Positions 3,472 through 57,871 of a stretch of DNA of 64,000 nt are shown one piece after another. Location of the stretch: NCBI GenBank assembly GCA_023473545.1, contig JAMCXO010000002.1, positions 6,340-70,339 on the forward strand, given 5' to 3'. Position 1 is the first letter of the stretch. Every line of letters starts with the position of its first letter. Made by a program: the position numbers and the translations under genes. Source of the stretch: Patescibacteria group bacterium (lineage in GTDB: Bacteria > Patescibacteriota > Microgenomatia > Levybacterales > UBA12049). The notes beneath the pieces are model-generated. The model was not told the origin of the DNA. It saw only the letters and a program-made list of their open reading frames with translations, and did no database searches.

Positions 3472-5706
3472 ATGAAACTGCCTTTTTCTTTTTCCCTGCA
3501 AAAAAAGGAAAACCCTGAATACTTCTTGGCCTTGCTCCTAAGAGAGGAAAAGGCCGAAGCGGTAATTTTTGAACAGTTTCACGGAAAGGTTAAGGTAATC
3601 GGCGAAAACGAAGAATACTTTAACGAATCTATAGAGAAAGCCTCTGATGAAATGTGGCTTGATACCCTGGATAAAATAATCTCTAAAGCCGAAGAAGCGC
3701 TTCCTGCCAATATCCAAACCCAAAAAACAATCTTTGGATTAAAAGAAAGCTGGGTTCTTAAAACACATATAAAAAGAGAGTATCTGGAGAGGATAAAAAA
3801 AATAAGCAAGGAGCTTAATTTAATTCCGATAGGATTTATCGTCATTGCCGAAGCGGTAGCGCATCTTTTGGAAAAAAAGGAAGGTGTTCCTATCTCTGCC
3901 ATATTGGCAGAGCTTGATAAAAAAAATATTACCCTATCCTTAATCCGCGCGGGAAAAATTGTTCATACCCAAAGCTCGGTAATAGAAGAATCTATCGTAA
4001 AAACTACGGATAAATTGCTTCATTTTTTTACCGACTACGGAATTCTTCCGTCCCGAATAATTCTTTTAGACGCGGAAGAAGATAATCTAAACCAAGAATT
4101 TATCTCCCACCCATGGAGCAAAAGCCTTCCTTTTCTGCATTTCCCTCAAATCGAAACACTGCCCGGAGGTTTTGATGCCCAGGCTGTTTTGTCGGGCGCG
4201 GTAAGTCAGATGGGATTTGAGTTACTGGGTGAAACCCCGGACAGAAAACCGCTCAGACAAACCCAGACACAGGAAGAGGCGGCGGGAGAGGGAGTGCCTC
4301 AGGCAGACAAAGGGAACGGAGAAAGCCTTTTGGAAAAAGACAGTGAAGATCTAGGATTTATCAAAGAGGGAGACATTGCCCAAATAAATCTGGACAGAAG
4401 TAATATATCGAATATATCGGAAGAGGCGGAAGAAAAAGCTATCGGAAAAGAGCTTCCCGAAACTAAGGCAGTAATAAATAGATTATCCGTCAAAAGACTT
4501 CTAACATTCTCAAATGCAATCTTTATCTCTTTAAAAGGTATTCTTGCCAAAATGCATCTGCCTTCTCTGCCCGCGTTTAGAAAGAACAAGCTGTTCATTC
4601 TACCCCTTGTCTTTGCTTTAATGATAGCTATTTTTGTTTTGTATCTTCTAAAAGCCTCCGCCAAGGTAATTTTATTTGTAAATCCAAACTCTTTGGAGAA
4701 AACGCAAAATATTACCTTTTCTCCCAATGCCGGTACGGATTTTTCTAAAGATATTATACACGCCAGCCCCATATCCGTATCCGAAACAGGCAGCGTCTCA
4801 ACCAACTCAACCGGCACAAAAGAGATTGGCAATAAGGCAAAGGGGAGTATAACAATTGTTAGTCTCTTGCCAAATCAACAAACATTTGAACAAGGCACAA
4901 GTGTAAAATCATCAAACGGACTGGAATTTACGACAGATTCAAGCATAACAGTGGCATCCAGTTCGGGTGCAACGGATCCTCAAACTCAGAAAGTAAACGT
5001 TACCGCAAAGGATATAGGAAAAAAATATAATTTGCCCTCTGGAACAAAATTCACCATCGGTTCATTCGATAGCTCATCTGCTCAGGGAGAAAATGATACG
5101 CCCTTTTCCGGAGGATCAAAAAAAGAGATAACCGTTGTGTCCAAGAATGATTATGACAAACTACTTGCTGAATTGCCTAAAAGCCTAGAGGACAAGGCAA
5201 AAAAAGACATCGCCCAAAAAGTCTCCCCGGATATGGGAATCATTCCCCTTCTAACCGGCGAAACCGTAACCGCCAAATACTTTGATAAAAATATAGGGGA
5301 TCAGACAGCCCAGGTAACCCTTAAAGCAACGGTTTCCTATCAAAGTCTCTCCTATAAAAAAAGTGACTTAAACACTTTCTCCTTACACCTTTTCCAAAAC
5401 CGTGCCCAAAGCGAAACAGTTACGGCAAGCGGTGTAAGCCTGTCTTTAAAAGATATTAAAGAGAATAGCGATAAAACAGTAAGCGCCAATCTTAAAGCAA
5501 CGGCTTCTCTTTTACCAAAGATAAATAACCGGCAATTAATAGAACAAATAAAAGGCAAACCAATCCAGGACGCGACAAGAATATTATCAAAACTGCCTCA
5601 GGTAAGGGATGTTTCCGTAAAGCTTTCTCCTGCCTTACCCTTGCTGCCCGGTCTTCTCCCAAGAATGGGGAGAAACATAATCATAATCATAAAAAACAAT
5701 GAGTAA
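3472..5706 (+). CDS. Hypothetical single-pass membrane/surface protein. It has an N-terminal cytoplasmic region, a TM segment near residue 380 and an S/T/G-rich repetitive extracellular region. It lies immediately upstream of the sortase and overlaps it.
   Basis: Long ORF with a hydrophobic segment (LFILPLVFALMIAIFVLYLL) and a repetitive S/T-rich C-terminal half. No family recognised. Confidence 0.5.
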   Translation: MKLPFSFSLQKKENPEYFLALLLREEKAEAVIFEQFHGKVKVIGENEEYFNESIEKASDEMWLDTLDKIISKAEEALPANIQTQKTIFGLKESWVLKTHIKREYLERIKKISKELNLIPIGFIVIAEAVAHLLEKKEGVPISAILAELDKKNITLSLIRAGKIVHTQSSVIEESIVKTTDKLLHFFTDYGILPSRIILLDAEEDNLNQEFISHPWSKSLPFLHFPQIETLPGGFDAQAVLSGAVSQMGFELLGETPDRKPLRQTQTQEEAAGEGVPQADKGNGESLLEKDSEDLGFIKEGDIAQINLDRSNISNISEEAEEKAIGKELPETKAVINRLSVKRLLTFSNAIFISLKGILAKMHLPSLPAFRKNKLFILPLVFALMIAIFVLYLLKASAKVILFVNPNSLEKTQNITFSPNAGTDFSKDIIHASPISVSETGSVSTNSTGTKEIGNKAKGSITIVSLLPNQQTFEQGTSVKSSNGLEFTTDSSITVASSSGATDPQTQKVNVTAKDIGKKYNLPSGTKFTIGSFDSSSAQGENDTPFSGGSKKEITVVSKNDYDKLLAELPKSLEDKAKKDIAQKVSPDMGIIPLLTGETVTAKYFDKNIGDQTAQVTLKATVSYQSLSYKKSDLNTFSLHLFQNRAQSETVTASGVSLSLKDIKENSDKTVSANLKATASLLPKINNRQLIEQIKGKPIQDATRILSKLPQVRDVSVKLSPALPLLPGLLPRMGRNIIIIIKNNE

Positions 5707-17522: not shown

Positions 17523-18479
17523 ATGTATCTCATGCCGGCTAAAATAAAAAAGACAACTGCTAAAAAGGCTTCTTTGCCTAAACGGATTCAAGGCGCATCA
17601 AGACCTCAATTTTCTTCCGAAAAGATCATTGAGCCCGAATATTTAAGCGTAAATCAAAAACAAACAAAACCCTACACCGCTATTCTTATAGTTCTGCTTA
17701 TTGTTGCCGGATTTTTTATCGGCATGCTTTACACAAAAGTACAATACCTGGAAAAGAACCAGCAGGACAACCAAAAAACCACAACTGTGGGCACTGCCGC
17801 AGCCCCTGCCGGTATTGGACCTTTACATGTTGCCAAGGTAATTGGTATGGATCCTGCCAAATTTAAATCTTGTTTAGAATCTAATAAATACGAGGCTCTT
17901 GTTAAGAGTGATCTTGCGGCCGGTCAAAAAGCCGGGGTGAACGGAACACCAACTACTTTTATTGATGGTTATCCTATGGTAGGCGCTCAACCCTATTCTG
18001 CGTTTAAAACCTTCATTGACCAAGAGCTTGCTAAATCTCAAGGCGGAACCCTGCCGATCGCGATTGTAGGCAAGGCTTACGCAGATTCTAAGATTCTGGC
18101 GCAGGCAAATAATCCCGCTGGACAAGTCTCGGCAATTCCCACACCGGCCAGGGTATCGGTTGGGCTGGGACGGTTTCCGATCATGGGCAATAAAAACGCG
18201 CCGGTAACCGTGGTTGAATTCGCAGATTTCCAATGCCCCTTTTGCGAAAGATGGTTCAAGGATGTAGAGCCGCAACTTATAAAAGACTATGTTAATACAG
18301 GCAAGATAAAGTTTGCCTATAGAAATTACGCGTTTTTGGGACAGGATTCTATCACCGCGGCAGAAGGCGCATATTGCGCTAACGAGCAGGGAAAATTCTG
18401 GGCTTACCACGATTTTATGTTTAACCACCAACAGCAGGAAAACTCCGGCTGGGCAAGTAAAGCAAATTTAGAAGAATAG
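17523..18479 (+). CDS. Membrane-anchored DsbA/BdbD-family thiol:disulfide oxidoreductase with circularly permuted domain order.
   Basis: The CPFC active site and thioredoxin N-half (PVTVVEFADFQCPFCERWF...KFAYRNY...GKFWAYHDFMF) lie in the C-terminal part. The canonical DsbA C-half (GVNGTPTTFIDGY...) lies in the N-terminal part, after the TM anchor. Confidence 0.7.
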   Translation: MYLMPAKIKKTTAKKASLPKRIQGASRPQFSSEKIIEPEYLSVNQKQTKPYTAILIVLLIVAGFFIGMLYTKVQYLEKNQQDNQKTTTVGTAAAPAGIGPLHVAKVIGMDPAKFKSCLESNKYEALVKSDLAAGQKAGVNGTPTTFIDGYPMVGAQPYSAFKTFIDQELAKSQGGTLPIAIVGKAYADSKILAQANNPAGQVSAIPTPARVSVGLGRFPIMGNKNAPVTVVEFADFQCPFCERWFKDVEPQLIKDYVNTGKIKFAYRNYAFLGQDSITAAEGAYCANEQGKFWAYHDFMFNHQQQENSGWASKANLEE

Positions 18480-21146: not shown

Positions 21147-21674
21147 CTAAATAATTTTGTAAATATAGATCTTATTTTTTGTGTCGGATTTAACGGGAGG
21201 CAAATCCATTTTGTAGCGATAGCTGACAATTCTTGTTCCCGGAGTTAGTTCTTTCTTAAACTTAGGCAGCAAAAGACTCAAGACCTTAGGAACAAGATAG
21301 ACAAAAACAACGGTTGCGGGCGATAAATCCTCATCAAAAAAATTCTTTCTTTTTATAACCACTCTTTTCTTTTCTCTAATGATTAGAATTATTAGAATAG
21401 CGATGATTGTCCTTAGGGGATCAATTTCAATACCAACCCCCTTTGCGCCGAATTCTCCGGCGGCTACCCTAAGGGCTGTGGCGTCTCCGCATCCCAGATC
21501 ATAAACGGTATCTTTTCGTGAAACACCGGCCAGCTCACACATGATTCTGGCTGTTTTTTTATCTGTTTTCCACCAGGGAGCCCAGGGGCTATCCGGAGGC
21601 CAGATCCAGGACAAAACAATCAACAAAAAAACTACCAGCGATATTAGCAGTATATTAAAAATAATAAAACCCAT
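21147..21674 (-). CDS. Small membrane-anchored class I SAM-dependent methyltransferase-like protein.
   Basis: N-terminal TM; SAM motif I VYDLGCGDA and post-I GIEID. Confidence 0.4.
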   Translation of the reverse strand: MGFIIFNILLISLVVFLLIVLSWIWPPDSPWAPWWKTDKKTARIMCELAGVSRKDTVYDLGCGDATALRVAAGEFGAKGVGIEIDPLRTIIAILIILIIREKKRVVIKRKNFFDEDLSPATVVFVYLVPKVLSLLLPKFKKELTPGTRIVSYRYKMDLPPVKSDTKNKIYIYKII

Positions 21675-21721: not shown

Positions 21722-22015
21722 TTAAAACTTCGAGATTACTTTTCCCATAATCTCCTTTTTCTCAATCCAGCCAAATTTTCCGCTGTCCAAACTATCTTTT
21801 CTATTGTCTCCTTCAACAAAATACCTATTCTCTTTTATTTTCTTAATTCTCTTAACAAAAACCCTTTCTGTGTTTCTATCTTTAAAAACTATGATATCGC
21901 CAATCTTGGGTTGGGAAATTAGATACGGAATATAACCAGCCAAAACCCTATCGCCTGTTTTAAACTGCGGTTCCATGCTGTGGCCAATAATCCTAAAAAA
22001 GGATAACAGAAGCAT
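21722..22015 (-). CDS. sodX: S26 signal-peptidase-like NiSOD maturation protease (SodX-like).
   Basis: Ser/Lys dyad context (GHSMEP, VKRIK) and SPase box E (GDNRKDSLDS). The start overlaps the sodN stop (TAATG). Confidence 0.65.
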   Translation of the reverse strand: MLLLSFFRIIGHSMEPQFKTGDRVLAGYIPYLISQPKIGDIIVFKDRNTERVFVKRIKKIKENRYFVEGDNRKDSLDSGKFGWIEKKEIMGKVISKF

Positions 22016-22512
22016 TATTTTGGCAGAACAATCTCTCCTCCTGTCGGATAAGAAGAGGAGACCTTAACTGTTTCCCGATTTTTGGTTTTCCAAAATATTT
22101 GAGCAAACTCCTGAACAGAGGAAAGCAGGTCGCTCGCGCTTTGTTTATCCACTTCCTGCCGGGTTTTGGAAGCAAGCTTCATAATTTTAAAAACCAGATT
22201 ATGCAAATCCGGATAGTCTTTTAGGTGTTCTTCTTTAAAATAATCCCCCCAAATGATTCTCACTTCGTGTTTAACCATTTCCGCGTGTTCTTCCTTTACC
22301 TTTGTGTATCTCGCGATCTTATGCATAAATTCTTTATCTCCTGTTTCAGTTTCTTCTTTTTTTAAATCAAGAATAAGATCGGTCATTCTAATAACAGTGT
22401 GGGCGGATACCTGGGCTAAATGAGGATCGTAAATGCCGCAGGGAATGTCGCAGTGGGCATAGGCAATTTGCCTGGGCACTATTCCTAAAAGAAAGTCAAA
22501 GGCAGTTTTCAT
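22015..22512 (-). CDS. sodN: Nickel-containing superoxide dismutase precursor. The pro-peptide MKTAFDFLLGIVPRQIAYA is followed by the Ni-hook HCDIPCGIYDP.
   Basis: The His-Cys-x-x-Pro-Cys-Gly-x-Tyr nickel-hook immediately after a short leader is diagnostic of NiSOD, and the adjacent S26 peptidase gene supports it. Confidence 0.85.
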   Translation of the reverse strand: MKTAFDFLLGIVPRQIAYAHCDIPCGIYDPHLAQVSAHTVIRMTDLILDLKKEETETGDKEFMHKIARYTKVKEEHAEMVKHEVRIIWGDYFKEEHLKDYPDLHNLVFKIMKLASKTRQEVDKQSASDLLSSVQEFAQIFWKTKNRETVKVSSSYPTGGEIVLPK

Positions 22513-22575
22513 AATAACTTTATCATAACATAGTGTTTTTAAATGTCAATAATTATGCTAAAATTAACACCATAA

Positions 22576-22650
22576 TCCGGTGTGGCTCAATGGTAGAGCG
22601 GCTCCCTGTTAAGGAGATGGTTGTAGGTTCGAGTCCTACCGCCGGAGCCA
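22576..22650 (+). tRNA. tRNA-Asn (anticodon GTT) with encoded CCA.
   Basis: Hand-folded cloverleaf: acceptor TCCGGTG/CGCCGGA (one G-U pair), D-arm GCTC/GAGC, anticodon loop CTGTTAA, T-arm GTAGG-TTCGAGT-CCTAC, discriminator G + CCA. Confidence 0.85.
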
Positions 22651-24111
22651 AAGTTGACGAGAGGCGTAAAAAGCTATCTTGTCAAACGGATTTATCCAGT
22701 CATATCGGGCTTTTTTACCCTTCAGTTCTAAGTTCTGAAGTGCCATCTTCAAAAGTAGCCGTTTTTCGTGGGCTTCAGAACTCTCAAAGACTTTTCCAGC
22801 GTTTTCAGCCAGCTTTAGCAGGTAAGATGAGGTGATATAGTATTCCTCATCGGCAAATTGTAGCTTCTCAATTTTCTTGTTGATAGCCTTTTGTTTTGCC
22901 CGATACTCTTTTCGTTTTTTCTCATAGTAGCTCTCAGTAATACTGCCGTCTATTTTGTCTTCCCAAGCCCGCTCAATGCGGTTCTCGTATTTTTTGTATT
23001 CCGATTGGTAGCGATTAAGCAGGCTTTGATGAAACTCTGATTTGTCCTTATGTGAGCTTTTCAGGGAAGTGGCTATATCCTCAACTACATCAGGGGGCAT
23101 TTGGAGCTTGTCAAACAGGCTTACAAACTGTTTGGTTAAGTCGTCTTCTGTTAGCCACTCAGCCCCGTGTTTACCGTTATATTGAGTGCAGTGGTAGTAG
23201 TGATAGACATTTCCGCTTTTCTTTATCTTACGCTCAGGCGTAATCATACAACCGCAGTCGGCACACCTGATTAAGCCTCTATAAGGAAAAGCCAAGCCCG
23301 CATACTTAAAGCGTTTTTTGTTAAACCCTGCTTTTATATCCTGCACTTTGTCAAAAAGTTCTTGGTCAATTACTCGGTCGTAGTTGTGCGTGTATTCTTG
23401 CCCATCATAAAGCATTGTCCCGCAGTAAAAGGGGTTTTTGAGGATAAAATCAATCTTGCCTTTGGAAAAGTCAAAGCCAAACACTTCTTTAATTTTGTTT
23501 CTTACTTCAAGCATTGAGTAACTGCCTGTGGAATACCACTGATACATTTTCTCAACTATCTCTGCCTCTGGTTCGTCAATGCCTATCCATTTTGAGCCGT
23601 CCTCTCTGGTTATATTTTTGTAGCCGTAAGGGGCTTTACCAGGATACTCGTTTTTGCTTATCTTGAACTTGGCGGTATTGATAGCGTCTTCTTTGAGGCG
23701 GTTAAGGTATTGCTTAGCAAGAAAGACCTTCAAGTCCCAATCCTGAATATCCCTGCCAACGCTATCTTTGTTGATAACAAGGTGGTCGTAAACAAAGTGA
23801 ATTTCCTTGCCATAGTCCAGCCGTAGTTCATCAATCTTAACGGCATCTCGGTAGTTTCTGGTTATGCGGTCAACTCGGTAGGAAATGATAACTTTTATGT
23901 CGTCGCTTGCCTTAACAAACTCAATCATTTCGTTAAAGCGTTTGCGTATCTTGTAGTCGGCACTTTCGCTAAAAACAAACTCTTTGACCACCTCAAAATC
24001 TCTTTTGACCGCATAATCTCTAAGTTCAGGGAGTTGAATGTCCTTGAGCGATAAGCCTTCTTTTTCTTGTTTGAGTGTTGATACTCTGGCTAAAATTACG
24101 GCTTTGGTCAT
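22636..24111 (-). CDS. Large serine recombinase (integrase): resolvase catalytic domain, recombinase domain and zinc ribbon. Its 3' end overlaps the tRNA-Asn 3' end.
   Basis: N-terminal resolvase motif (AVILARVSTLKQ...SLKDIQ; YRVDRITR), C-terminal zinc ribbon (RCADCGCMITPE) and coiled-coil. Confidence 0.85.
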   Translation of the reverse strand: MTKAVILARVSTLKQEKEGLSLKDIQLPELRDYAVKRDFEVVKEFVFSESADYKIRKRFNEMIEFVKASDDIKVIISYRVDRITRNYRDAVKIDELRLDYGKEIHFVYDHLVINKDSVGRDIQDWDLKVFLAKQYLNRLKEDAINTAKFKISKNEYPGKAPYGYKNITREDGSKWIGIDEPEAEIVEKMYQWYSTGSYSMLEVRNKIKEVFGFDFSKGKIDFILKNPFYCGTMLYDGQEYTHNYDRVIDQELFDKVQDIKAGFNKKRFKYAGLAFPYRGLIRCADCGCMITPERKIKKSGNVYHYYHCTQYNGKHGAEWLTEDDLTKQFVSLFDKLQMPPDVVEDIATSLKSSHKDKSEFHQSLLNRYQSEYKKYENRIERAWEDKIDGSITESYYEKKRKEYRAKQKAINKKIEKLQFADEEYYITSSYLLKLAENAGKVFESSEAHEKRLLLKMALQNLELKGKKARYDWINPFDKIAFYASRQLWLRR

Positions 24112-24112
24112 A

Positions 24113-25483
24113 TCAGTTCAAAATCATAGCCTCAACTTGTTTTTTTGCTTCATTTAATAACTTAGAGGCTTCGGTTTTTAGTTTTTCTACTTCTTGATAT
24201 TTTTCCATAACTTTATTTGAAATATCTTTCTGCTTTTCTAGTGGGGGTAAAGGTAATAAGAAGCTCTGTATTGTAGGAATTGTAATGTTGCCTTGAATTG
24301 CCCCGATACGCTCTCTTTGGACTAGTAATTTTGAAATATCGCTATTCAGCCAGACTGATGCATAATTGTTATTAAGTTGCTCATTAAGCCTAAACTTAAT
24401 CATAAAAGAGCCATAAGCAAAGCCGTCAGCTTTTTTAGGAACTACCGCTACTATACCTATGCTTCCACTTCTTGAGATGAGCAGGTCATTTTCGTAAACA
24501 AAACAGTTGCCTATTTCTTTTTCCTTACTTTTTGGTAGATGAACAACATCAGTTAAATCTATATGATTAGGTTTTAGATTTAATATCCTAAGCAATGGTA
24601 TACCGTCAGCCATATAATCGTTTTTAACAGAAGCCCCGTAACGGATTTCGGTTATATAGTTACCAAGCTCTTTAATCGGGTATTTGCTACTCTTGAGTTG
24701 GTTTATGGTCGTCGCAAACTTTGGATTGTGATAATAGGGGTCTTGGCGGTTGCCATCTAGGTCTTGTGAGTTGACGGTATAGATTTTTTCTTCCTCTGGC
24801 TCTTGGTAGTCTATGCCTAGCTGTTGCCTTACAAAGCCATCAATAGAGCTTAGTAGCTCGTCGGCTTGTTTTAGTTTTTGTTCTCTTGTTTCATAGGCTT
24901 TTTTTAATAAGTTGGTTATCTGTTTTTGTTTCTCTTCTGGCAATATGGGTATTAGCAGGTCTTCAACATCTTTAGTTTGTAATCTGGGCAATGTATTGCC
25001 CGTCATCAAGTAAGATGTTTGATTGACAACTAGATGAGAGCTAAGAAAAGCAAAGAGATAGTAGTTACTGCACTTGTGGGCTTCCAAAATATGGAACTCA
25101 GTTGAACATATCCCCTCGGTTGTAGCTAAGTGAACTTTGTTTAGGTATGGTCGTAATTTTGGAAAAAGAATGTTGCCAGCATTAAAGCTAAACGCACTAC
25201 CAAACTCTTTGCCTTGATCAACATCAGAAGCTATACCCGTATCACCTTCTATATTTTCAAGACCAAAATAGGGCGTGTCTTCGCTTGCTTCGCTAACAAT
25301 ATCTCTTTTGAATGTTGCTACTTGGCTAAGAGGCAAAACATCACAACTGAGTGATTTAATTCTTTTGACGGCATTTAGCCTAGTTGGGTGGTATGCACTA
25401 GGGTCAAGTCTTCCCTCAAGGTCATTGTAATTAACAAAATAAGTGTTCATATTAACCCTTGTAACCAGGTGTATTTTTAACAA
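24113..25483 (-). CDS. Restriction-modification specificity subunit (HsdS-like, two target-recognition domains). The true start is probably the internal Met at about 25450.
   Basis: Two TRD halves, each followed by a conserved coiled-coil spacer (EEKQKQITNLLKK...; LEKQKDISNKVMEKYQE). Confidence 0.8.
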   Translation of the reverse strand: MLKIHLVTRVNMNTYFVNYNDLEGRLDPSAYHPTRLNAVKRIKSLSCDVLPLSQVATFKRDIVSEASEDTPYFGLENIEGDTGIASDVDQGKEFGSAFSFNAGNILFPKLRPYLNKVHLATTEGICSTEFHILEAHKCSNYYLFAFLSSHLVVNQTSYLMTGNTLPRLQTKDVEDLLIPILPEEKQKQITNLLKKAYETREQKLKQADELLSSIDGFVRQQLGIDYQEPEEEKIYTVNSQDLDGNRQDPYYHNPKFATTINQLKSSKYPIKELGNYITEIRYGASVKNDYMADGIPLLRILNLKPNHIDLTDVVHLPKSKEKEIGNCFVYENDLLISRSGSIGIVAVVPKKADGFAYGSFMIKFRLNEQLNNNYASVWLNSDISKLLVQRERIGAIQGNITIPTIQSFLLPLPPLEKQKDISNKVMEKYQEVEKLKTEASKLLNEAKKQVEAMILN

Positions 25484-27278
25484 ACCGCTTATACTCCTCT
25501 CGGATTTCCGTTAGGTCGTTCTTTGGGTCTTTTCTGCCCGTTGCGTCGTAGCCTATATGGTCGGCAATAGCCATAAAGATAGGATAATTACCTAGTTTTT
25601 CGTTATCGCTTTTGCGTCTGAGGAAAACCAGAGAGGACTTAACCCCAGCTCCAAAGTGAGCAAAGGCAAATTGTGGTAGGGACACAATCGCTTCTATCTG
25701 GCATTTGTCCATTATGTAATCCCTTACATACTGCAAAGAGGAGTTAGATAAAATACCGTCGGGCAAGACTATGGCAATCCTGCCCGTTTTGGGTTTGACA
25801 AAGTTCACACAACGCTCAATAAACAGAATTTCTGTTTTTTGGTTTTTCTTGCCTTTGCCAAGCTCGTAATGGTCAAGGTAGTTTTTCTCGGTTGATTTAA
25901 CCGTTGCCCCAAAAGGGGGATTGGTGAGAATTAGGTCAAAACGGTCTTTGCCAAACTTAGTGTGCAGGTCGTTTATCTCGCTAAAATCTCTCAAGCTGTC
26001 GGTGCTGATGATATTGGTGTGTCCGTCGTCGTGGATAATCATATTCATCTTGCAGACCCTTGCTATCTGGTCGTTTATCTCAATACCATAAAGGTTATTC
26101 ATCGCAAAACTATGCCAGTATTCTTTGGCTTCCCAGTCGTCGTAGTTTGCCTCTGCGAAGTTTCTCACTTCATCAAGCGAGTTGAGCAAAAAGCCCCCGC
26201 TACCGCAAGCGGGGTCTAGGACTAAATCGCCTCGTTGCGGGTTCATCATTTCAACGCAAAACCTGATGATTTCTCTTGGGGTAAAGAACTGTCCCATCTT
26301 GCCCTTAAAGAAGTCTTCCATAAACCGCTCAAAAGCAATTCCTTTGGTGTCTAGGTCAATTTTGTTAATAGCTAGCCCCTGTAAATGTTCTACAACGCTG
26401 TAAACAACTTTCGGGTCAAGCCTGATGTCTTCCTTAAAGACTTCGCTGTCTTCCTGTTTGGCTTTGAGGTAAATAGAGTTGACCCGCTTAAATACTTCGT
26501 CGGCTGTTTCGTGTGTGCCAATTTGGAATTTGTAAGGCTCGCCTCGTTTGGTTAGCTTTTCGTCTCTTAACTTGCAGAACAAAAGTTTAGACACTTCATC
26601 AAAGGCGGTTGTTGGAGCTAATTTGCCACCTTGCCAGACAGTATCGTGGCTCTTGCCAAGAGCGGTTATCAACTCATCTTTGGAAACGGTTTTAAGCTCT
26701 TTGTCTTCTTCTCCTTTAATAAACCTGTATTTGGGCGTTCTGCCGTATTTAACGGGAATATCGGCAATGACATTTTTCTCTCGCTCGCTTGGCTTAAAAC
26801 CCGCAATATCAAAAGCAGTTTTGGTCGTGCCAGCTACCACTATGGCAAACTTGGCTCTTAGGCTGTTGGCGTTACCAAAGGCTTGCTCTATGGCTTGCTT
26901 AAACTCGGCGTCGGTTACCCCGTCTTTTTTGCACTCAACGATAAGGTAGGGGGTCTTGAGGTCATCGTCTTCGTAAATAACAATATCTGCTCGGTCTTCT
27001 GGGGTTCTTCTTGGGACAGTTACCTCAATGTCAATCTGGTTTTGGGGATATTGGTAGTCAAGGACAAGCTCAACAAAATAGGAAGCTCTAATCGTTTCTT
27101 CTGGGTTTTTGAACGAGGTTGAGTAATCCCTTGAGCAATGGTAGATAATGCGGGCGTTATCGTCAGTAAAAGAGATTAAGCCCTCTTGCTTGCCTCTTTC
27201 AATGTTTCTTAAAAAGATTGAGCCTCTGTCGTTGTTATTTGTCATTTTTCCTTTCATAACTGGTAATAAAGCGGTCAA
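25452..27278 (-). CDS. Fused restriction endonuclease-methyltransferase subunit (BcgI A-like): N-terminal PD-(D/E)xK nuclease (HSDR_N-like) plus gamma-class N6-adenine methyltransferase.
   Basis: Nuclease motif D(IVIYEDD)...LIVECKK in the first 120 aa; MTase motif I LDPACGSGGFL; motif IV LTNPPFG. Confidence 0.8.
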   Translation of the reverse strand: MTALLPVMKGKMTNNNDRGSIFLRNIERGKQEGLISFTDDNARIIYHCSRDYSTSFKNPEETIRASYFVELVLDYQYPQNQIDIEVTVPRRTPEDRADIVIYEDDDLKTPYLIVECKKDGVTDAEFKQAIEQAFGNANSLRAKFAIVVAGTTKTAFDIAGFKPSEREKNVIADIPVKYGRTPKYRFIKGEEDKELKTVSKDELITALGKSHDTVWQGGKLAPTTAFDEVSKLLFCKLRDEKLTKRGEPYKFQIGTHETADEVFKRVNSIYLKAKQEDSEVFKEDIRLDPKVVYSVVEHLQGLAINKIDLDTKGIAFERFMEDFFKGKMGQFFTPREIIRFCVEMMNPQRGDLVLDPACGSGGFLLNSLDEVRNFAEANYDDWEAKEYWHSFAMNNLYGIEINDQIARVCKMNMIIHDDGHTNIISTDSLRDFSEINDLHTKFGKDRFDLILTNPPFGATVKSTEKNYLDHYELGKGKKNQKTEILFIERCVNFVKPKTGRIAIVLPDGILSNSSLQYVRDYIMDKCQIEAIVSLPQFAFAHFGAGVKSSLVFLRRKSDNEKLGNYPIFMAIADHIGYDATGRKDPKNDLTEIREEYKRFVKNTPGYKG

Positions 27279-27438
27279 GGTCGGGTTTGTTTATGCGGTA
27301 TTGTTTACCCGCTTTATACGCCTTGAGCTTGCCGTCCTGTATCCAGCGATAGACCGTCAGATAAACCACCTTGAGCATTTTTGCCACTTCTTCTATGGTG
27401 TAGTATTTTTCTTCTGTCATATTAGCTGTATTTAACAT
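27235..27438 (-). CDS. Excisionase/MerR-like HTH DNA-binding protein.
   Basis: YTIEEVAKMLKVVYLTVYRWIQDGKLKAYK matches excisionase-family HTH proteins; the location in a mobile element supports it. Confidence 0.55.
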   Translation of the reverse strand: MLNTANMTEEKYYTIEEVAKMLKVVYLTVYRWIQDGKLKAYKAGKQYRINKPDLDRFITSYERKNDK

Positions 27439-28594
27439 TATTTAACATTTCTTCTTGATTTGCAAGTAGTTTTAATGGCTCAAAATCAGTTATCTGCTTT
27501 CGGAGTAGAGAGAATACGCTAACCTCATCAGCATAGTTAAGTTTTTGGATTTTCTTGTTTAGACTATACCAGTAGTAATTGCCGTGTCTTTTAGTCATCT
27601 GCCTGTAATCCCTTACACCAATTTCCTCAAGCAACATTCTGAAGCCAGTAAGCTCAAGAGCTTGAGTGGGTTTCAGTTTTGGGTTTGCTACCAATAGTCT
27701 CTCAAAGAACTTTTTAGGGCTGTCGTATTGATATGTCAGTAAAGTCGGATAGGCTTCTTCAATCTCGTTGATGTAATAAAGCAATACCCTTTTAGCCGTA
27801 TCTTGGTTAAAGATGTTTGTAAAAGTTGGTTCTACTTTTTTACCAATTTTGTTGAGGATTTGGTTGATTTTCTGCCGTTTGTTTAGCCGTATCTCAACTC
27901 GCAATACCTCAAATGGTTTTCGTTGGGTCAGAACATCAAATAAGCCAAGCTGCAGGGCATTATCCTTTTCTTCAGCTCGTTTTTCGCTAATTTTAGCTTG
28001 CTCTAAGTCCTTGATTTTGTCGTAAAAAACAATCTCAAACGAGTTAGCCCGATACTTGAAGCTATGCCCCTCGTTCCTAAAATCAGTTCTGTTTGTATCC
28101 AGCCGTTTATTGATATTGAGCTTGGTTAGTTGTTCAAGGTAAGTATAGGGCGTCGTATAGTCAGTTAAGGCTATATTTTTAGAGTAATGGACTGATGAAA
28201 CGGGAGCGTTTATCAGGTTTTTCTCAAAGAGGTAAACACCCATTTCTTTTAGGACGGCTTTAAGTTTTTGGATGATAGTAGGAAAATCAGTGTCCGTTAG
28301 CTCGTCAAAGTTATTGCCGTAAAGCAGTTTTGGAATAGAAAATTCAATTTTAAGCGGCATCTCAAAATTACCCTCTCGGTTTATCCGCTTGGTAACAGTT
28401 AGTCTGGGCTTATAAAGACCTCTCTTAAGTTCATTTGCAGTTGGGTTTTGCTTGCAAGTGATATTAGACCTACCACCCAAACGATAATAGCCAGTAGTTG
28501 GGTCAGTAAGCCCTCTGGTTGACGGACTAAAAAAGTCAGGTTCAAATATCGTATACATACCTGTATTAAGGGTTAAAACGATTGTGTCTATCAT
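27422..28594 (-). CDS. Hypothetical element protein, possibly a replication/initiator-type protein; no confident family.
   Basis: 390-aa ORF overlapping its neighbours on both sides in the element cargo. Confidence 0.3.
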   Translation of the reverse strand: MIDTIVLTLNTGMYTIFEPDFFSPSTRGLTDPTTGYYRLGGRSNITCKQNPTANELKRGLYKPRLTVTKRINREGNFEMPLKIEFSIPKLLYGNNFDELTDTDFPTIIQKLKAVLKEMGVYLFEKNLINAPVSSVHYSKNIALTDYTTPYTYLEQLTKLNINKRLDTNRTDFRNEGHSFKYRANSFEIVFYDKIKDLEQAKISEKRAEEKDNALQLGLFDVLTQRKPFEVLRVEIRLNKRQKINQILNKIGKKVEPTFTNIFNQDTAKRVLLYYINEIEEAYPTLLTYQYDSPKKFFERLLVANPKLKPTQALELTGFRMLLEEIGVRDYRQMTKRHGNYYWYSLNKKIQKLNYADEVSVFSLLRKQITDFEPLKLLANQEEMLNNVKYS

Positions 28595-28859
28595 AGTTGT
28601 TCATTACTTCTTCAAACCGCCTTACAATTTCGTTTTCTATTAACTGGGCAAACTCTCGGTTAATCGGATAAAAAATGTTGAGGCTTCTATCGGCTACCTT
28701 TTTAGTGGGGTAAACGAGCCTGTAGCTCCCATTAGGACGGGTCATAATGCCGATTGAGCCCAGATAGAGGTTTTGGTCTAAGACAAAGCTCGCAAATGCC
28801 ACTAAGCCGTTTTGCGGTTTTATAGGTATGATTTGAATTTCACTTAATCGGTTTGTCAT
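28566..28859 (-). CDS. SpoVG-family protein.
   Basis: LVAFASFVLDQNLYLGSIGIMTRPNGSYRLVYPTKK aligns with the SpoVG core (KAFASITLD..FVVHDIRVI.G.NGLFVAMPS.K). Confidence 0.55.
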   Translation of the reverse strand: MTNRLSEIQIIPIKPQNGLVAFASFVLDQNLYLGSIGIMTRPNGSYRLVYPTKKVADRSLNIFYPINREFAQLIENEIVRRFEEVMNNYDRHNRFNP

Positions 28860-30835: not shown

Positions 30836-31993
30836 ATGAAAATCGGTAAGCTCATCCAACAACCCAGTGGGTATCAGGCATTTATCCCAGACAAATTCCC
30901 TCCAAAAGAGCAAATTGTTCTGAACTCCAAAACCCAGCAGCTTCACGCCAAGGCTGTGCTTATGCTGGGTAAATTAGATGGCATTACTCAATTACTTCCT
31001 GACCTGGATTTTTTCATTTTTATGTATATCCGCAAGGAAGCGGCTAAGTCAAGCGAGATTGAGGGGACTCAAGCCACCATTATTGATGTCATTAAAAGCG
31101 AGGCACAAATTGAAAGCCGTTTTCCACAAGATGTTGAAAGAATCATTCACTATATCAATGCTATGGAATATGGCTTGAATCGATTGGAAACCTTACCGTT
31201 ATCACTTCGGTTTATTAGGGAAATCCATAAGGTACTGATTGGTGGTACGATTGACGCTCCCGGTAAAACACCAGGAGAATTTAGGACCTCCCAAAATTGG
31301 ATCGGCGGAGGTTCTCCCAATACTGCTAAATTTGTACCACCAACACACGCAGAAATGAACCGATGCCTAGATGACTTTGAAAAATTTTTGCATGCTACCA
31401 ACGAGTACCCGCCACTTATTAAAGCAGCTTTAGCGCATGCCCAATTTGAAACCATCCACCCGTTCCTTGATGGTAATGGCAGAACTGGCCGGCTTTTAAC
31501 TACTTTTTATCTTTGTAAACTGGGTATCCTTGAAAGGCCAGTACTTTACCTATCTGAATACTTTTTGAATAACCAAAAGGCATATTACGGGTCGTTAAAT
31601 TCTTATCACCAAGAAGATGCTGATGTTTTCGGTTGGCTTGATTTCTTTTTAGATGGGGTGGCTATCATTGCGACAGAGGCAATTGAGGCGTCAAAAAAAA
31701 TCAATATTTTACGCCAGAAAGATACTATTAAGATTCAATCTTTGGGGCGGAGAACAAAAACAGGCATGATAGTTTTGGAAAATCTTTTTAAGCTTCCAAT
31801 TATCAGTGTCAGAAAAGTCGAAGAATGGACGGGGCTTTCTCGTCCCCAAGCCAACGATCTAGTTAAAAAGCTTATAGAGCTAGGAATTCTTGAGCAAAGA
31901 AATAAAAATATCAAGTATGACAGGGAATTTTGGTATAAAAAGTATCTTGATGTTTTCGTGAGTAAAGAAGAAATTAAAAAATCAAATGAATAA
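30836..31993 (+). CDS. Fic/DOC family protein (AMPylation-type motif) with N-terminal inhibitory motif.
   Basis: Canonical HPFLDGNGRTGR (HxFx(D/E)GNGRxxR), an upstream SxxxEG (SSEIEG), and a C-terminal winged-helix-like region. Confidence 0.85.
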   Translation: MKIGKLIQQPSGYQAFIPDKFPPKEQIVLNSKTQQLHAKAVLMLGKLDGITQLLPDLDFFIFMYIRKEAAKSSEIEGTQATIIDVIKSEAQIESRFPQDVERIIHYINAMEYGLNRLETLPLSLRFIREIHKVLIGGTIDAPGKTPGEFRTSQNWIGGGSPNTAKFVPPTHAEMNRCLDDFEKFLHATNEYPPLIKAALAHAQFETIHPFLDGNGRTGRLLTTFYLCKLGILERPVLYLSEYFLNNQKAYYGSLNSYHQEDADVFGWLDFFLDGVAIIATEAIEASKKINILRQKDTIKIQSLGRRTKTGMIVLENLFKLPIISVRKVEEWTGLSRPQANDLVKKLIELGILEQRNKNIKYDREFWYKKYLDVFVSKEEIKKSNE

Positions 31994-32157
31994 ACCTGAC
32001 TTTACCCTCGATAAAATCAAATTTGCCATTGATCAACCGACATTCAAGAAAGCAATGGCGCTATACGAAAGTGGCAAGGTTACCCAAGTCGAAGAAAGTA
32101 TTCGATTGTGTATAGGAGTTGTAAATGGCACAATGTCAGCGCATTCGATAAATTGAT
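31987..32157 (+). pseudogene. Short ORF (56 aa) that looks like an N-terminal fragment of a larger protein; probable gene remnant at the decayed end of the element.
   Basis: MNKPDFTLDKIKFAIDQPTFKKAMALYESGKVTQVEE, then a stop. Over 1 kb of AT-rich non-coding DNA with further out-of-frame fragments follows. Confidence 0.25.
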
Positions 32158-32553
32158 AATTTTATCAGTAGACCTAATGGATTAACTTTTGAAAAGATTT
32201 TTACAAAATCTTACACAAATTTTGGCTGCCACACTTCTATAAACTTCGTTAATGAAAAATTATGGGATATTTTCCTTTTTATATAGTGAGGTCTTTCAAT
32301 TAACTCCATCTTCCATTGAGTAAAATCGCCATATTTTCTCAATATACCGACTTTTTACCTGGATCAAACAAGCTGCCCAACGAAAGCAATACAATATTTC
32401 CTTTTACCAACAACAGTGGAATATCATTAAAGATGCCATTGCCCAGCAAATGAAACTTGAATTAACTGCTACCTAAGTGCGAAACTCGTGTAATTCTCCA
32501 ATTATTCCTGCCATTTTTTATTCCTTTCTATTATAGTGTGATATAATCCAGCT

Positions 32554-32805
32554 GTGTTTAAAAAAACAAAAGGATTTATCTCTAGTTTAATAACAATTAT
32601 TTTATTAGTAGCCATATTTCCTACATTATTTATTATTACTTTTATTGATTTTCCTCTTTATTTTTCTTCGTTTCCCTTAATAGTTCCTATATTAGGTTTT
32701 TTATTAGCTGCAGAAACAGGACTTTTTCTTATCGCGATTTTTCATTTAGTTAAAAATCTTAGTCTATCCTTTAAATCTCTTTCTCGGAAAACTAAAGTTG
32801 CTTGA
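32554..32805 (+). CDS. Small hydrophobic protein (83 aa, about 3 TM segments) in very AT-rich DNA.
   Basis: Preceded by a TGATATAAT extended -10 at about 32536; entirely hydrophobic. Confidence 0.3.
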   Translation: MFKKTKGFISSLITIILLVAIFPTLFIITFIDFPLYFSSFPLIVPILGFLLAAETGLFLIAIFHLVKNLSLSFKSLSRKTKVA

Positions 32806-33205
32806 GAAAAATATTTAATGTGCGATATTATTTTATTTTTTAATTATCTCTTTCTTCTATTTCTTTCTTATTTAGGGATTGAGATAATTAAGTCTTCATG
32901 GCCTACTAATAAAAGTACGGCTATGATCGCTCTCATTCCGTTATTATTGGGATTTTTCTTCTTTGTTTTCCCCACAACGCATAGTGGGATTTATAGTTCT
33001 ATGCTTTGCATTCTTCCTTAATTTTTAAAGAGCCACTAACTACTTCTTTTTTGTTATATACAGTAATACAATATCTTTTTGGGTCTGGGAAATCAAGGTA
33101 GAACTAAAAAATGTGGGTGAATCTTGTAGAGTTTTTTCATTTCCTCTTTGCTTATAATAATTATGACTGATTAATCGCAACGGAACTTTCTGTTATAATT
33201 TCATC

Positions 33206-50501: not shown

Positions 50502-51509
50502 TTAATGCTGAAGGCTTAGAAAGCGTTCGACCTCCAAGGCGGCCATACAGCCAAAACCGGCCGCTGTTATCGCCTGTTTATATAAACTGTCATGAACGTC
50601 CCCTGCCACAAAAACGCCCTCTATGTTTGTCTTCGTATGATCATAAACCTTAATGAAACCCTTCTCATCCGCGTCTATACCCTGAAAAACTTTTGAATTC
50701 GGAATATGTCCGATTGCGACAAACACTCCGTCAGCCGGCATTTCCCAGGCTATTGTCTGGTCTTGAACTGCCAGTGCTTGACCCCCCATTTCCTCAGGCA
50801 AAATTTCTTTTTCTTGGTTTTGGGTTTTGATCTCTATCTTTGATCTTTGATCTTTGATCTTTGATCTTATTTGAACCTTCTCCACCTTCCTCTCCCCCAG
50901 TATTTCCGCAATCTCGCTGTTAAATATAACCTTGATTTTAGAGCTGTTAAACACCTTCTCCTGCATGACGGCGGACGCGCGAAAAGCATCTTTTCTATGA
51001 ATAAGGATCACCTCGCTGGCAAATTTTGTTAGAACCAGCGCCTCTTCCATTGCACTGTCTCCACCTCCTACAACTATAACCTTTTTGTTTCTGAAAAAAG
51101 GGGCATCGCATGGAGCACAGGTTGATACCCCTTTGCCAACTTTCTCCTTTTCGCCCGGAACCCCAAGCCATTTTGTATCGGCTCCTGTGGCGATAATAAC
51201 CGATCTTCCCTCGTAGGCTTTTCCCGCAACGGAAATCGCGAATGGAGATTTGGAAAAAGCAGTTTGAGAGAAATCTTCGTCCAGAAACCGCGCCCCAAGT
51301 CTTTCCGCTTGCTTTCGCATCGCTGTCATTAACTCAGGCCCCTGAATTCCTTCCGGGAAACCGGGAAAGTTTTCAACAAGAGTCGTCAGCATTAACTGCC
51401 CGCCCCATTTTGCTCCGGCTATAACTAGTGTCCTAAGATTGGCGCGGGTGGCATAGATAGCGGCAGTTAAACCCGCGGGGCCGGAACCGATGATAATAAC
51501 GTCATGCAT
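50502..51509 (-). CDS. trxB: Thioredoxin-disulfide reductase with an insertion of about 20 aa encoded by a heptamer repeat.
   Basis: FAD motif GSGPAGLTAA, redox-active CAPC, NADPH motif GGGDSAMEEA, and an extra KIKDQRSKIEIKTQNQEKE segment. Confidence 0.9.
   Translation of the reverse strand: MHDVIIIGSGPAGLTAAIYATRANLRTLVIAGAKWGGQLMLTTLVENFPGFPEGIQGPELMTAMRKQAERLGARFLDEDFSQTAFSKSPFAISVAGKAYEGRSVIIATGADTKWLGVPGEKEKVGKGVSTCAPCDAPFFRNKKVIVVGGGDSAMEEALVLTKFASEVILIHRKDAFRASAVMQEKVFNSSKIKVIFNSEIAEILGERKVEKVQIRSKIKDQRSKIEIKTQNQEKEILPEEMGGQALAVQDQTIAWEMPADGVFVAIGHIPNSKVFQGIDADEKGFIKVYDHTKTNIEGVFVAGDVHDSLYKQAITAAGFGCMAALEVERFLSLQH
50838..50865 (-). repeat. Tandem heptanucleotide repeat (CTTTGAT)x4 (+ strand) inside trxB, encoding SKIKDQR-type repeats in frame.
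   Basis: Seen directly in the sequence. Confidence 0.8.
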
Positions 51510-51552: not shown

Positions 51553-51879
51553 TTACGAAGCTAAAACCTCTTCTATTTCCTTCTTAAAGTTTTCTTTGCT
51601 TTGGGCCCCAACCATGGTCTTTATCGGCTTGCCATCTCTGAAGATAATAAGACTTGGAATACTCATTACCGCGTAACGAGAAGCTGTTTGCGAATTCTCA
51701 TCTACGTTGAGTTTTCCCACCTTTAATTTATCCTGATACTCCTTGGCCAGCTCTTCAACAATAGGAGAAACCATTCTGCAGGGGCCGCACCATGGAGCCC
51801 AAAAATCAACCAGAACAGGAAGCTTACTCTGCAAAACTTCCTGATCAAAACTAGAGTCGGTAATTACAAAATCCGCCAT
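51553..51879 (-). CDS. trxA: Thioredoxin.
   Basis: WAPWCGPCR active site; 108 aa. Confidence 0.9.
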
Positions 51880-55568: not shown

Positions 55569-57848
55569 TCAAAAAATCTTGAATATCTTAGTTTGGCCTT
55601 TTTCAAAAACAATCTTTCCCAATTTATAAAATTTATTCTCGTTAAGATTGGGGTATTTCTGTCTCTCTAAATCTCCGATGAAAATATATTTTATATTATA
55701 TTTCTTAAGAAGGCTTTTGGTTAGTTTTAAATTATTCTCCTCATATAAATTCTTTACATCCGGTATTCTTGCAGCAGGAATATTGTAGGTTCCCCGCCAT
55801 AACCATTCGTGAACAGTCCAGCCCAAAACAGTGGGAATGCCCGTGTTTGCCGAAACCCTGGCGTAATCGGTATACGAATCCCCTTGGGCCTCCAAGATTA
55901 CCGGCTGTCCCTTAACATGCGCATTTAACCACTGTATAGCCTCATAATCACTGGGGTAAAGATCTTTAAGATAGGCTGTTCCATTTAAACCATGATAGGT
56001 CTTAAGATTATCATAATAAGAATTTATGGCAAAATAAGGATAGATTGATACCAAAAATAGACCGATGCCTCCTATAAGTATTGCCGCTAATTGCCAGTAA
56101 TTTACTCTTTTCTTTAGGCCTTCTTTAAAATCGGAAATTATTCTTGTTATGGCATAGGCAGAGGCTATCGAAAGCATAATAAAGGCCTGATAAACAAGTT
56201 TAAACATGGTATTTGCCCTAAAATAGGTTGTATAAATATCTTTCAGATAAAAAAATTCAGGCGCAATAATAAGAACGCTTGAAAAAAGAATTAAAATTAA
56301 AACAAAAAGATCAGAAGGGGGAAAATTTTTAATTCTAAACTTAAAATTTTCAATCAAATTCAAATGATTAAATTTTAATTCTTTAAAAACTTTTGAGTTT
56401 TGATTTTTGATTTTAACAATAATAAACAAAGCCGCCCAAAAATAGAAAAAGCCGTATAAAATAAATAATTGCCAGACAGGAGAAGTCTGGCAGTAATTTT
56501 TTTCGAAAAGAAAGGGCCCTATTTTGCCGATTTTTGTTAAAAAATGGGGGGCACAGTTAATGCCGATACCGGAAACAAAGGGTTTAAAATTGACATTGAA
56601 AGGCAAAGAAAAAATAAAAAAGCAAATAGCAATCAGCAGCAAATAAATAATAAATGTGTAAATCTTTGATTTTAAATTTCTAATTTTAAATGAGTCCATA
56701 ATTCTTAATTCATAATTCTTAATTCGTGGGGGTTCGGAAGAAGGATCTATTAAGATAAGATACCCCAAAACTAAAAAGGCAAGAAGAAAGTAGATCAACC
56801 CGTCCCAGGCATTTGTCATATACATCACCGCTAATAAAAAGCTTATTAGGGGAATTTGTAGTCTTAAATTTCTAATTTTTAATGGATGCTCAAGGTTTAA
56901 GTTTTTAAATAACGACAGTAAAACGGCAATTATCAAAAGCACAAATGGAACATCTAAAACATGTCCATGAAGATCCGAGACCACAAAAGAATAAATAGGA
57001 AATTCATGAATCGTGTGGTAAATAAACCGGGTCGCGTTAGGATACCAGTAATTATTCGGGAAGGTAAAAGGAGAAAACGGCATTTGCCAAAAAGGAAGAG
57101 GATTGTTCGAATTATAGCCCGAAAAGAAAGAGTATATTGTTTGGAGATTTCCTGCAAAAGAAACTAAAAACGCAGTTAGCAATCCCCCCATTACAACTTT
57201 TGAATTTTGAGTTGTGTTTTTAAGTTTACTAATCAAGTTGGCGCCAATCGAAAATGACTCCATAAACGTCAAGGCAAATAAAGTAGCAATCATTAAATTA
57301 AAAGTAATATTGGAAGGTATGTTTGAAATTTTGGTTAATACCGCTGTTACTAAATGTCCAAAATAATAATAATTTATGGGAAGAGGCGTAAACCACATAT
57401 CTTTTGGCGGGAAATAGGTGCTTCGTAAAATTGAATTAAGAAAACCAAAATCCATGAATTTTTCAAGTCCATGGATATCCGGCTGATGGGCTCTGATATA
57501 AACCCAAAATAAAAAAGAGGCTAAAAATAAAATTTCCTCCAGTAAATAAATCGGCCGGTTTTTTTTATAAATCACAAAGTAATCTTCTTTTTTCATAATT
57601 AAAAAATTGATAATCGCGAAAAAGGAAAGGAGCATAATAAGACTGGGTTTATTAAAGGCAAGAATATGCGCTACGCCCAAAACGAAAATGGCATAAGATA
57701 TAATAGCCGCGCCGATTATCTTTGAAAAAATATATCCGTTGTCAAAAAGATTCCTTAAGAAGAAAAAAGTAAAAGGCAGAAAGATACTGCCCACCAAGAA
57801 TAAAATAAACCACCAAGTAAGGGCGTTAATTAAATCGGCTATAGGCAT
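55569..57848 (-). CDS. DUF2298 / Chlor_Arch_YYY-family polytopic membrane protein (putative glycosyltransferase), with three in-frame low-complexity insertions.
   Basis: The PINYYYFGHL motif lies in the N-terminal third, alongside many TM helices and a C-terminal soluble domain (YTDYARVSANTGIPTVLGW). The insertions are encoded by tandem micro-repeats at about 56300..56420, 56640..56730 and 56850..56890. Confidence 0.6.
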   Translation of the reverse strand: MPIADLINALTWWFILFLVGSIFLPFTFFFLRNLFDNGYIFSKIIGAAIISYAIFVLGVAHILAFNKPSLIMLLSFFAIINFLIMKKEDYFVIYKKNRPIYLLEEILFLASFLFWVYIRAHQPDIHGLEKFMDFGFLNSILRSTYFPPKDMWFTPLPINYYYFGHLVTAVLTKISNIPSNITFNLMIATLFALTFMESFSIGANLISKLKNTTQNSKVVMGGLLTAFLVSFAGNLQTIYSFFSGYNSNNPLPFWQMPFSPFTFPNNYWYPNATRFIYHTIHEFPIYSFVVSDLHGHVLDVPFVLLIIAVLLSLFKNLNLEHPLKIRNLRLQIPLISFLLAVMYMTNAWDGLIYFLLAFLVLGYLILIDPSSEPPRIKNYELRIMDSFKIRNLKSKIYTFIIYLLLIAICFFIFSLPFNVNFKPFVSGIGINCAPHFLTKIGKIGPFLFEKNYCQTSPVWQLFILYGFFYFWAALFIIVKIKNQNSKVFKELKFNHLNLIENFKFRIKNFPPSDLFVLILILFSSVLIIAPEFFYLKDIYTTYFRANTMFKLVYQAFIMLSIASAYAITRIISDFKEGLKKRVNYWQLAAILIGGIGLFLVSIYPYFAINSYYDNLKTYHGLNGTAYLKDLYPSDYEAIQWLNAHVKGQPVILEAQGDSYTDYARVSANTGIPTVLGWTVHEWLWRGTYNIPAARIPDVKNLYEENNLKLTKSLLKKYNIKYIFIGDLERQKYPNLNENKFYKLGKIVFEKGQTKIFKIF

Positions 57849-57871
57849 AAATTTCTCCTGATGATTCTAGA

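Follow-up and report, generated by a model that had tools for sequence, protein, structure and literature searches.

The 64,000-nucleotide stretch of contig JAMCXO010000002.1 analysed here (the window, 64 kb in full) comes from a Patescibacteria group bacterium and carries sodN, the gene of a nickel superoxide dismutase (NiSOD) precursor, directly followed by sodX, the gene of a small S26-family peptidase. It is highly probable that the two genes form a NiSOD cassette with its own maturation mechanism, in a Microgenomates/Levybacteria-like Patescibacteria genome. A reduced-genome bacterium of this group would then possess a complete and apparently functional NiSOD maturation pair, which fits the published surveys and implies that the organism meets oxygen and requires nickel.

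An earlier sequence-only reading had placed the two genes within positions 21,722-22,512, and both open reading frames (ORFs) lie exactly there, on the minus strand, which that reading had left unstated. Its description of the Ni-hook HCDIPCGIYDP right after a 19-residue leader is correct, with His20 encoded by 22453..22455, as is that of the motifs GHSMEP, VKRIK and GDNRKDSLDS in a coupled downstream gene. The TAATG overlap is real as well, for the sodN stop codon TAA and the sodX ATG share the A at 22015. Its interpretation of the two products as a NiSOD and a dedicated S26 peptidase, that is, a maturation pair, is upheld by the profiles, the folds, the leader junction and the gene linkage described below. 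Plus-strand ORFs of 41-56 aa within 21722..22512 were taken as shadow ORFs, since they fall wholly inside the two well-supported minus-strand genes.

The pair is an ordinary, already catalogued one for a small-genome Patescibacteria bacterium. NCBI already lists an identical SodN under the title 'superoxide dismutase, Ni [Patescibacteria group bacterium]', from the metagenome-assembled genome GCA_023379465.1, and the closest named relatives, at 55-69% identity, belong to Levybacteria, Daviesbacteria and other Patescibacteria. In the NiSOD tree of a preprint entitled 'Inter-domain Horizontal Gene Transfer of Nickel-binding Superoxide Dismutase', in which neither sodX nor any peptidase is mentioned, the Patescibacteria form several clusters, from which at least three transfers from Chloroflexota were inferred and transfers into archaea were proposed (bioRxiv 10.1101/2021.01.12.426412). 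The window SodN falls in exactly this group of clades. Given the NCBI annotation and these clades, the finding is therefore known biology, correctly read. Among the loci collected for comparison (numbered with the prefix L), we also noted contigs binned as Halobacteriales, Heimdallarchaeota or 'archaeon' (L025, L026, L027 and L036) with a sodN 53-59% identical to that of the window, most of them with sodX and L026 without it; these could be real transfers or mis-binned short contigs.

The SodN precursor and the SodX peptidase

SodN scores 159.9 bits against the Pfam model Sod_Ni (PF09055, E=5.5e-47, cut-off 25) and 166.6 bits against the NCBIfam equivalog TIGR02753 (cut-off 90). Compared with solved structures, it matches only NiSODs (1q0d, 1t6u and mutants, E ~2e-22), and the alignment over the hook is gap-free, with His20 opposite the first residue of mature Streptomyces NiSOD (1q0d, 1t6u). 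Since the structural alignment begins at this residue, the preceding 19 residues are a pre-sequence. Both outcomes that the sequence-only reading had named as refuting it were tested for, and neither came true. When the hook is compared with Streptomyces NiSOD, His1, Cys2 and Cys6 match the crystallised mature N-terminus residue for residue, and the motif HCD[ILV]PCGIYDP is kept in all 120 of the closest database homologues; Tyr9 and the DYFK motif (Tyr62, Lys64) are also retained. The junction behind the leader is compatible with cleavage, for the leader ends in Ala-Tyr-Ala (AYA), consistent with the -3/-1 rule of type I signal peptidases. This pattern is shared by the same 120 homologues, whose leaders are mostly 18-21 aa long (mode 19-20 aa) and have Ala, Val or Ile at -3 and Ala, Gly or Thr at -1, AYA followed by His being the commonest junction, as in the window. 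Removal of the leader is needed to free the alpha-amine of His1.

The fold agrees with this assignment. The AlphaFold2 (AF2) model of SodN, computed with 51 homologues, has a predicted local distance difference test (pLDDT) score of 91.1 and forms a four-helix bundle (helices 31-49, 58-91, 103-119 and 123-143). Its Foldseek matches in the PDB with E<=0.001 are all NiSOD chains, with template-modelling (TM) scores of 0.88-0.93 normalised to the target. The hook is the low-confidence part of the model; a disordered hook is expected in metal-free NiSOD.

The downstream product, SodX, gives 70.3 bits against the Pfam model Peptidase_S26 (PF10502, E=2.5e-19, cut-off 22.9), and its signature motifs occupy residues 11-16 (GHSMEP), 54-58 (VKRIK) and 69-78 (GDNRKDSLDS). 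In 68 relatives taken from related loci, Ser13 of the S26 Ser/Lys dyad is kept in 67 and Lys55 in all, while GDN69-71 and Ser75 are present in 65-68; in a second set of 48 database homologues, G11, S13, M14, K55, R56, G69, D70 and N71 are invariant. The nucleophile Ser13 has just 12 residues ahead of it, too few for a membrane anchor. Modelled with AF2 (pLDDT 88.7), SodX shows the signal-peptidase core fold, and the top Foldseek matches of the model are SpsB, SEC11A/C, SipA and LepB, with query TM scores of 0.71-0.79 for the best of them. SodX homologues are mostly 91-107 aa long, and one of them, 65% identical, is labelled 'nickel-type superoxide dismutase maturation protease' by JGI.

The public gene model of sodX needs a correction. 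The NCBI version ('S26 family signal peptidase', 84 aa) begins at Met14, 13 codons late, and thereby loses Ser13, whereas the 97-aa start (region 21977..22015) is backed by the conservation of residues 3-13. The sodX gene call in L004 (85 aa) likewise begins at MEP, and it looks as if this start-site error, which drops the catalytic serine, is recurrent for these short peptidases.

The pairing of the two genes is conserved. With the window SodN as query, 30 genome loci were recovered, 29 of which have downstream sequence, and in 28 of these 29 a SodX gene lies directly downstream of sodN. Moreover, three SodN subtypes occupy a single chromosomal slot, with the order PfkB, sodN-sodX, methyltransferase and FemAB-UvrD. 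Their identities to the window SodN are 61-68%, 46-54% and 41-48%, and they differ in the presence or absence of a C-terminal extension and in their helix-2 motifs, whereas the methyltransferase is 48-66% identical throughout. The contrast between subtypes can be seen in L041, L044, L046, L059, L080, L086 and L096 on one side and L048, L058, L064 and others on the other. The slot lacks sodN-sodX in five further loci (L072, L053, L081, L087 and L090). These patterns are most simply explained if sodN-sodX is an independent two-gene cassette whose gain, loss or replacement took place next to a gene that stayed where it was. A swappable cassette of this kind has a bearing on the three separate NiSOD transfers into Patescibacteria inferred in the preprint. 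As a separate observation, four related loci have a gene for an HExxH protein of 220-260 aa between sodX and the methyltransferase gene, on the opposite strand (Table 1); the window has no counterpart.

The route from gene to enzyme can be proposed as follows, with cleavage, nickel loading, assembly and activity taken by analogy from the characterised Streptomyces and Prochlorococcus systems. The sodN gene would be transcribed from a strong sigma-70-type promoter right at its start codon, probably as a leaderless mRNA, and sodX would be translated by stop-start coupling through the TAATG overlap. SodN would be made in an inactive form, and the cytoplasmic, anchor-free SodX of about 100 aa would cut it after Ala-Tyr-Ala19 by means of Ser13 and Lys55, releasing the alpha-amine of His20, which becomes His1. 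The amine and imidazole of His1, the amide and thiolate of Cys2 and the thiolate of Cys6 would then coordinate nickel. The hook would fold onto the four-helix bundle and the protein would assemble, presumably as an oligomer like the hexameric Streptomyces enzyme, so that Ni(II)/Ni(III) cycling could dismutate superoxide.

Departures from the crystallised enzyme and alternative readings

The window SodN differs from the crystallised NiSOD in several respects. The 1q0d alignment stops at residue 145; the C-terminal stretch beyond it, of about 20 aa (...VKSxYPTGGEIVxxK), has no counterpart in the Streptomyces enzyme and is conserved across most of the clade, and AF2 predicts it as a beta-hairpin with strands 148-152 and 160-164 and block-mean pLDDT values of 89-95. 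An insertion of about 10 aa is also present after helix 1, between helices 1 and 2. The second-sphere residues of this clade, considered next, and its extra C-terminal hairpin are among the leads that follow from the present analysis.

A number of observations weigh against a complete and working maturation pair. In Streptomyces NiSOD, a His1-Glu17-Arg47 hydrogen-bond triad has been described (PMC5722923). This triad was looked for in the window SodN by alignment and was not found: the positions of Glu17 and Arg47, the hydrogen-bond partners of His1, are taken by Ser17 and His47, and throughout the clade by Ala, Ser or Gly and by His. The triad belongs to the Streptomyces enzyme as crystallised and does not serve to define the family. 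As to SodX, the dedicated sod_Ni_protease model TIGR02754 gives it only 55.0 bits, under the cut-off of 63.25. The match nevertheless runs along the whole profile, residues 8-94 falling on profile positions 2-89 of 90, and probably this SodX clade has diverged too far for the model, which seems to be adjusted to other lineages. The box E sequence of SodX is DSG, with Gly79 encoded by 21779..21781, where 50 of the 68 relatives have DSR, and the window SodX is the only one with Gly at this position among the relatives compared. The box E Arg is not among the catalytic residues of S26 peptidases. Nor was a nickel importer, a Nur-like regulator or a NiCo riboswitch found within the window. Pfam scans of its large ORFs gave no NiCoT, HupE/UreJ, Nik, CbiMNQO, CorA or Nur, and an Rfam scan returned tRNA only; the search for nickel-uptake genes, which the sequence-only reading had advised for the rest of the genome, came back empty over these 64 kb.

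Some of these points could be turned into other explanations. If SodX were the general type I signal peptidase of the cell, the SodN leader would be a Sec signal peptide and the NiSOD would be exported. SodX does clear the generic signal peptidase I model TIGR02227 (76.2 bits, cut-off 47) while missing the cut-off of TIGR02754, and the leader resembles a short signal peptide in its N-terminal Lys, hydrophobic stretch and AxA end. This explanation is nonetheless extremely improbable, given the 12 residues ahead of the serine, the lack of a transmembrane anchor and of a large LepB-type insert, the full-length TIGR02754 match and the tie of sodX to sodN in nearly all loci. The hydrophobic stretch of the homologue leaders displayed is, moreover, short and usually interrupted by a charged residue or Pro. 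The NiSODs of Streptomyces and Prochlorococcus, which have the same arrangement, are cytoplasmic, and this too counts against export. It is also very unlikely that the pair is present but non-functional, for example with an impaired SodX or no nickel supply, as Gly79 and the lack of a nickel transporter in the window might suggest. Both ORFs are intact, every catalytic and ligand residue is in place, a near-consensus promoter precedes sodN, and three contigs assembled independently of one another encode the identical proteins; the absence of a transporter from the genome, for its part, cannot be read off a 64-kb window. A functional two-gene cassette is our preferred reading.

The gene that follows sodX encodes a predicted membrane-anchored methyltransferase dependent on S-adenosylmethionine (SAM). 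It matches the aKMT structures 5fa8/5jwj with E=3e-24 over residues 30-156 and scores 92 bits against NF041081, whose cut-off is 200. By inspection, its N-terminal 25 aa are hydrophobic and it contains the motif WPPDSPWAPWW, an architecture that recalls FAM173A/B, in which a transmembrane segment lies ahead of the methyltransferase domain (PMC9006661). One might suppose that sodN, sodX and this gene are a single three-gene functional module, in which SodN is modified or its maturation is tethered to the membrane. The three genes are co-oriented, with no convincing terminator in the gap between sodX and the methyltransferase gene. The latter comes next after sodX in the window, in L004, in L005 and in 10 of the 30 sodN-seeded genome loci, as well as in about 40 of 47 metagenome loci seeded with the methyltransferase that have enough upstream sequence; among related Microgenomates loci, most show it behind sodN-sodX. 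The trio is also intact in the window, although FemAB-UvrD-TIM-LytR, by which it is usually flanked, is here found at 39.4-44.1 kb. Against this, flanking ORFs are common to 145 of 210 locus pairs, and with such extended synteny on both sides the adjacency can be inherited gene order. No dependence of the methyltransferase on sodN-sodX was found in the slots that lack the cassette: in L072 and L053 it stands directly beside the usual upstream neighbour PfkB, and in L081, L087 and L090 it is present with its downstream flank. It is therefore kept independently of the SOD genes. Conversely, other Patescibacteria, including Daviesbacteria, Colwellbacteria and Saccharibacteria, have sodN-sodX loci without it. 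The characterised relatives also act elsewhere, aKMT being of broad specificity and FAM173A/B targeting ANT and ATP synthase subunit c (PMC9006661).

A three-gene module is thus unlikely, the methyltransferase as a dedicated NiSOD partner is largely rejected, and the gene is probably mere context outside the SOD module. A broader proposal, which we regard as improbable when taken as a whole, would combine these threads. The Patescibacteria-type NiSOD would be a structurally distinct subclass (C-terminal hairpin, Ser/His for the triad) on a self-contained sodN-sodX cassette that is gained, lost or swapped among three subtypes at one slot, and it would be co-transcribed with the aKMT/FAM173-like methyltransferase, perhaps acting on SodN or coupling its maturation to the membrane.

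Promoters and genomic surroundings

The promoter-like site ahead of sodN agrees with the consensus at 11 of 12 positions and has an extended -10 element, which ends 9 nt before the sodN ATG; no Shine-Dalgarno sequence is seen. With the -10 element abutting the ATG and no such sequence in between, the sodN transcript is probably leaderless. The same promoter layout occurs at about 25 of 56 related loci. A leaderless promoter specific to sodN was rejected, since the same near-ATG -10 recurs at many window genes: a TAnAAT-like -10 stands about 4-10 nt before the start codon of many first genes of operons across the window, without a Shine-Dalgarno sequence, and a Shine-Dalgarno-like motif precedes just 8 of the 52 window genes. 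Examples of the leaderless type lie upstream of 1675, 7801, 9716-11839(-), 33206, 33834, 40532-41206(-) and 51553-51879(-). This pattern in the DNA suggests that leaderless mRNAs are widespread and a property of the whole genome.

Located 63 nt upstream of sodN, a tRNA-Asn(GTT) gene marks the boundary of a genomic island of about 22576..~33000, and a large serine recombinase gene overlaps its 3' end. Besides the genes listed in Table 1, the island holds an HTH_17 gene and a gene for a 482-aa protein, and the GC skew is flattened over about 22-36 kb. We considered sodN-sodX as cargo of this island and rejected the idea: the island genes lie beyond tRNA-Asn, on the side away from sodN, and in L005 a 65%-identical recombinase also abuts tRNA-Asn. 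In GC content, sodN-sodX does not differ from the mean of the window. No recombinase match was found within the retrieved sequence of the other sodN-sodX loci, and no att direct repeats of the tRNA 3' end were found. Serine recombinases leave a 2-bp crossover only, and long flanking repeats are therefore not expected.

The L005 tRNA-Asn(GTT), at 4192..4466 on the minus strand of that locus and beside the recombinase, has its anticodon loop interrupted by a group I intron of 200 nt (RF00028, 83 bits); ARAGORN detected this tRNA only with introns allowed. Two AT-rich stretches of the window, 31994..33205 and 56001..58000, have a GC content of about 0.31-0.32, compared with 0.39-0.45 elsewhere. 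The former contains no ORF of at least 90 aa, and the latter lies inside a DUF2298 membrane-protein gene.

The sequence-only reading had further pointed to trxA, trxB and a DsbA-like gene within 30 kb of sodN as an oxidative-stress toolkit. The genes are indeed present within that distance, but the toolkit is an over-reading, as they are unlinked housekeeping genes. The trxA and trxB genes are 28-29 kb from sodN, past the inserted island, and are unlinked to sodN in related genomes.

Table 1. Features of the sodN-sodX region and its surroundings; coordinates refer to the window unless a locus is named.
Feature	Coordinates	Strand	Basis or remark
sodN, NiSOD precursor, 165 aa	22015..22512	-	Pfam, NCBIfam, PDB alignment, AF2/Foldseek
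SodN 19-codon leader, MKTAFDFLLGIVPRQIAYA	22456..22512	-	alignment and homologue leaders
Ni-hook HCDIPCGIYDP, residues 20-30 (mature residues 1-11)	22423..22455	-	alignment and homologues
SodN C-terminal extension, ~20 aa, RETVKVSSSYPTGGEIVLPK	22018..22077	-	end of 1q0d alignment
sodX, soluble S26 Ser/Lys peptidase, 97 aa	21722..22015	-	Pfam, NCBIfam, residue conservation, AF2/Foldseek
SodX catalytic Ser13	21977..21979	-	conserved S26 dyad
SodX catalytic Lys55	21851..21853	-	conserved S26 dyad
sodN promoter-like site, TTGACA, 16 nt, TGnTATGAT	22522..22549	-	consensus match only
Class I SAM methyltransferase, 175 aa, aKMT/FAM173 type	21147..21674	-	47 nt downstream of sodX
tRNA-Asn(GTT)	22576..22650	+	island boundary, outside the module
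Large serine recombinase	22636..24111		overlaps tRNA-Asn 3' end
Type I/IIG restriction-modification specificity subunit	24113..25483		
Type I/IIG methylase with HsdR N-terminal domain	25452..27278		
390-aa protein	27422..28594		
SpoVG-like protein	28566..28859		
Fic protein	30836..31993		
DsbA-like protein	17523..18479		
trxB	50502..51509		
trxA	51553..51879		
HExxH-protein gene, L007	5795..6586	opposite sodN	
HExxH-protein gene, L037	3190..3864	opposite sodN	
HExxH-protein gene, L038	500..1249	opposite sodN	
HExxH-protein gene, L046	3306..3968	opposite sodN	

Comparison with known systems

The closest characterised counterparts are SodN (SCO5254; 1t6u, 1q0d) and SodX (SCO5255) of Streptomyces coelicolor/seoulensis. 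Both systems have the HCDxPCGxYDP hook, Tyr9, the DYFK motif and the four-helix bundle, and in both the gene of a precursor with a short leader adjoins that of a small cognate S26 peptidase, which removes the leader in Streptomyces. In contrast, the proteins are only about 33% identical, and the window SodN has its 19-aa leader ending in AYA, the insertion of about 10 aa and the C-terminal hairpin of about 20 aa, with Ser and His in place of Glu17 and Arg47. The Nur regulator is not seen in the window. The gene layout differs too: a conserved intergenic region separates sodN and sodX in Streptomyces, whereas the window genes are co-directional and overlap at TAATG.

The need of NiSOD for its cognate peptidase goes back to Eitinger 2004, as that work is cited in PMC3919588 and PMC8346466. 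The SodN-SodX pair of Prochlorococcus marinus MIT9313 described there resembles the present one as a two-gene module in a small genome, and according to these citing accounts active NiSOD was obtained only with the cognate peptidase. It belongs, however, to another NiSOD clade, the cyanobacterial sequences falling in the Actinobacteriota-dominated half of the tree (bioRxiv 10.1101/2021.01.12.426412).

With the general signal peptidases LepB and SpsB (MEROPS S26), SodX has in common the Ser/Lys dyad, the GDN and S-x-DS boxes and the core beta fold. Unlike them, it is a protein of 97 aa with neither the transmembrane anchor nor the large beta-sheet insert, and its genomic linkage points to a single substrate, SodN.

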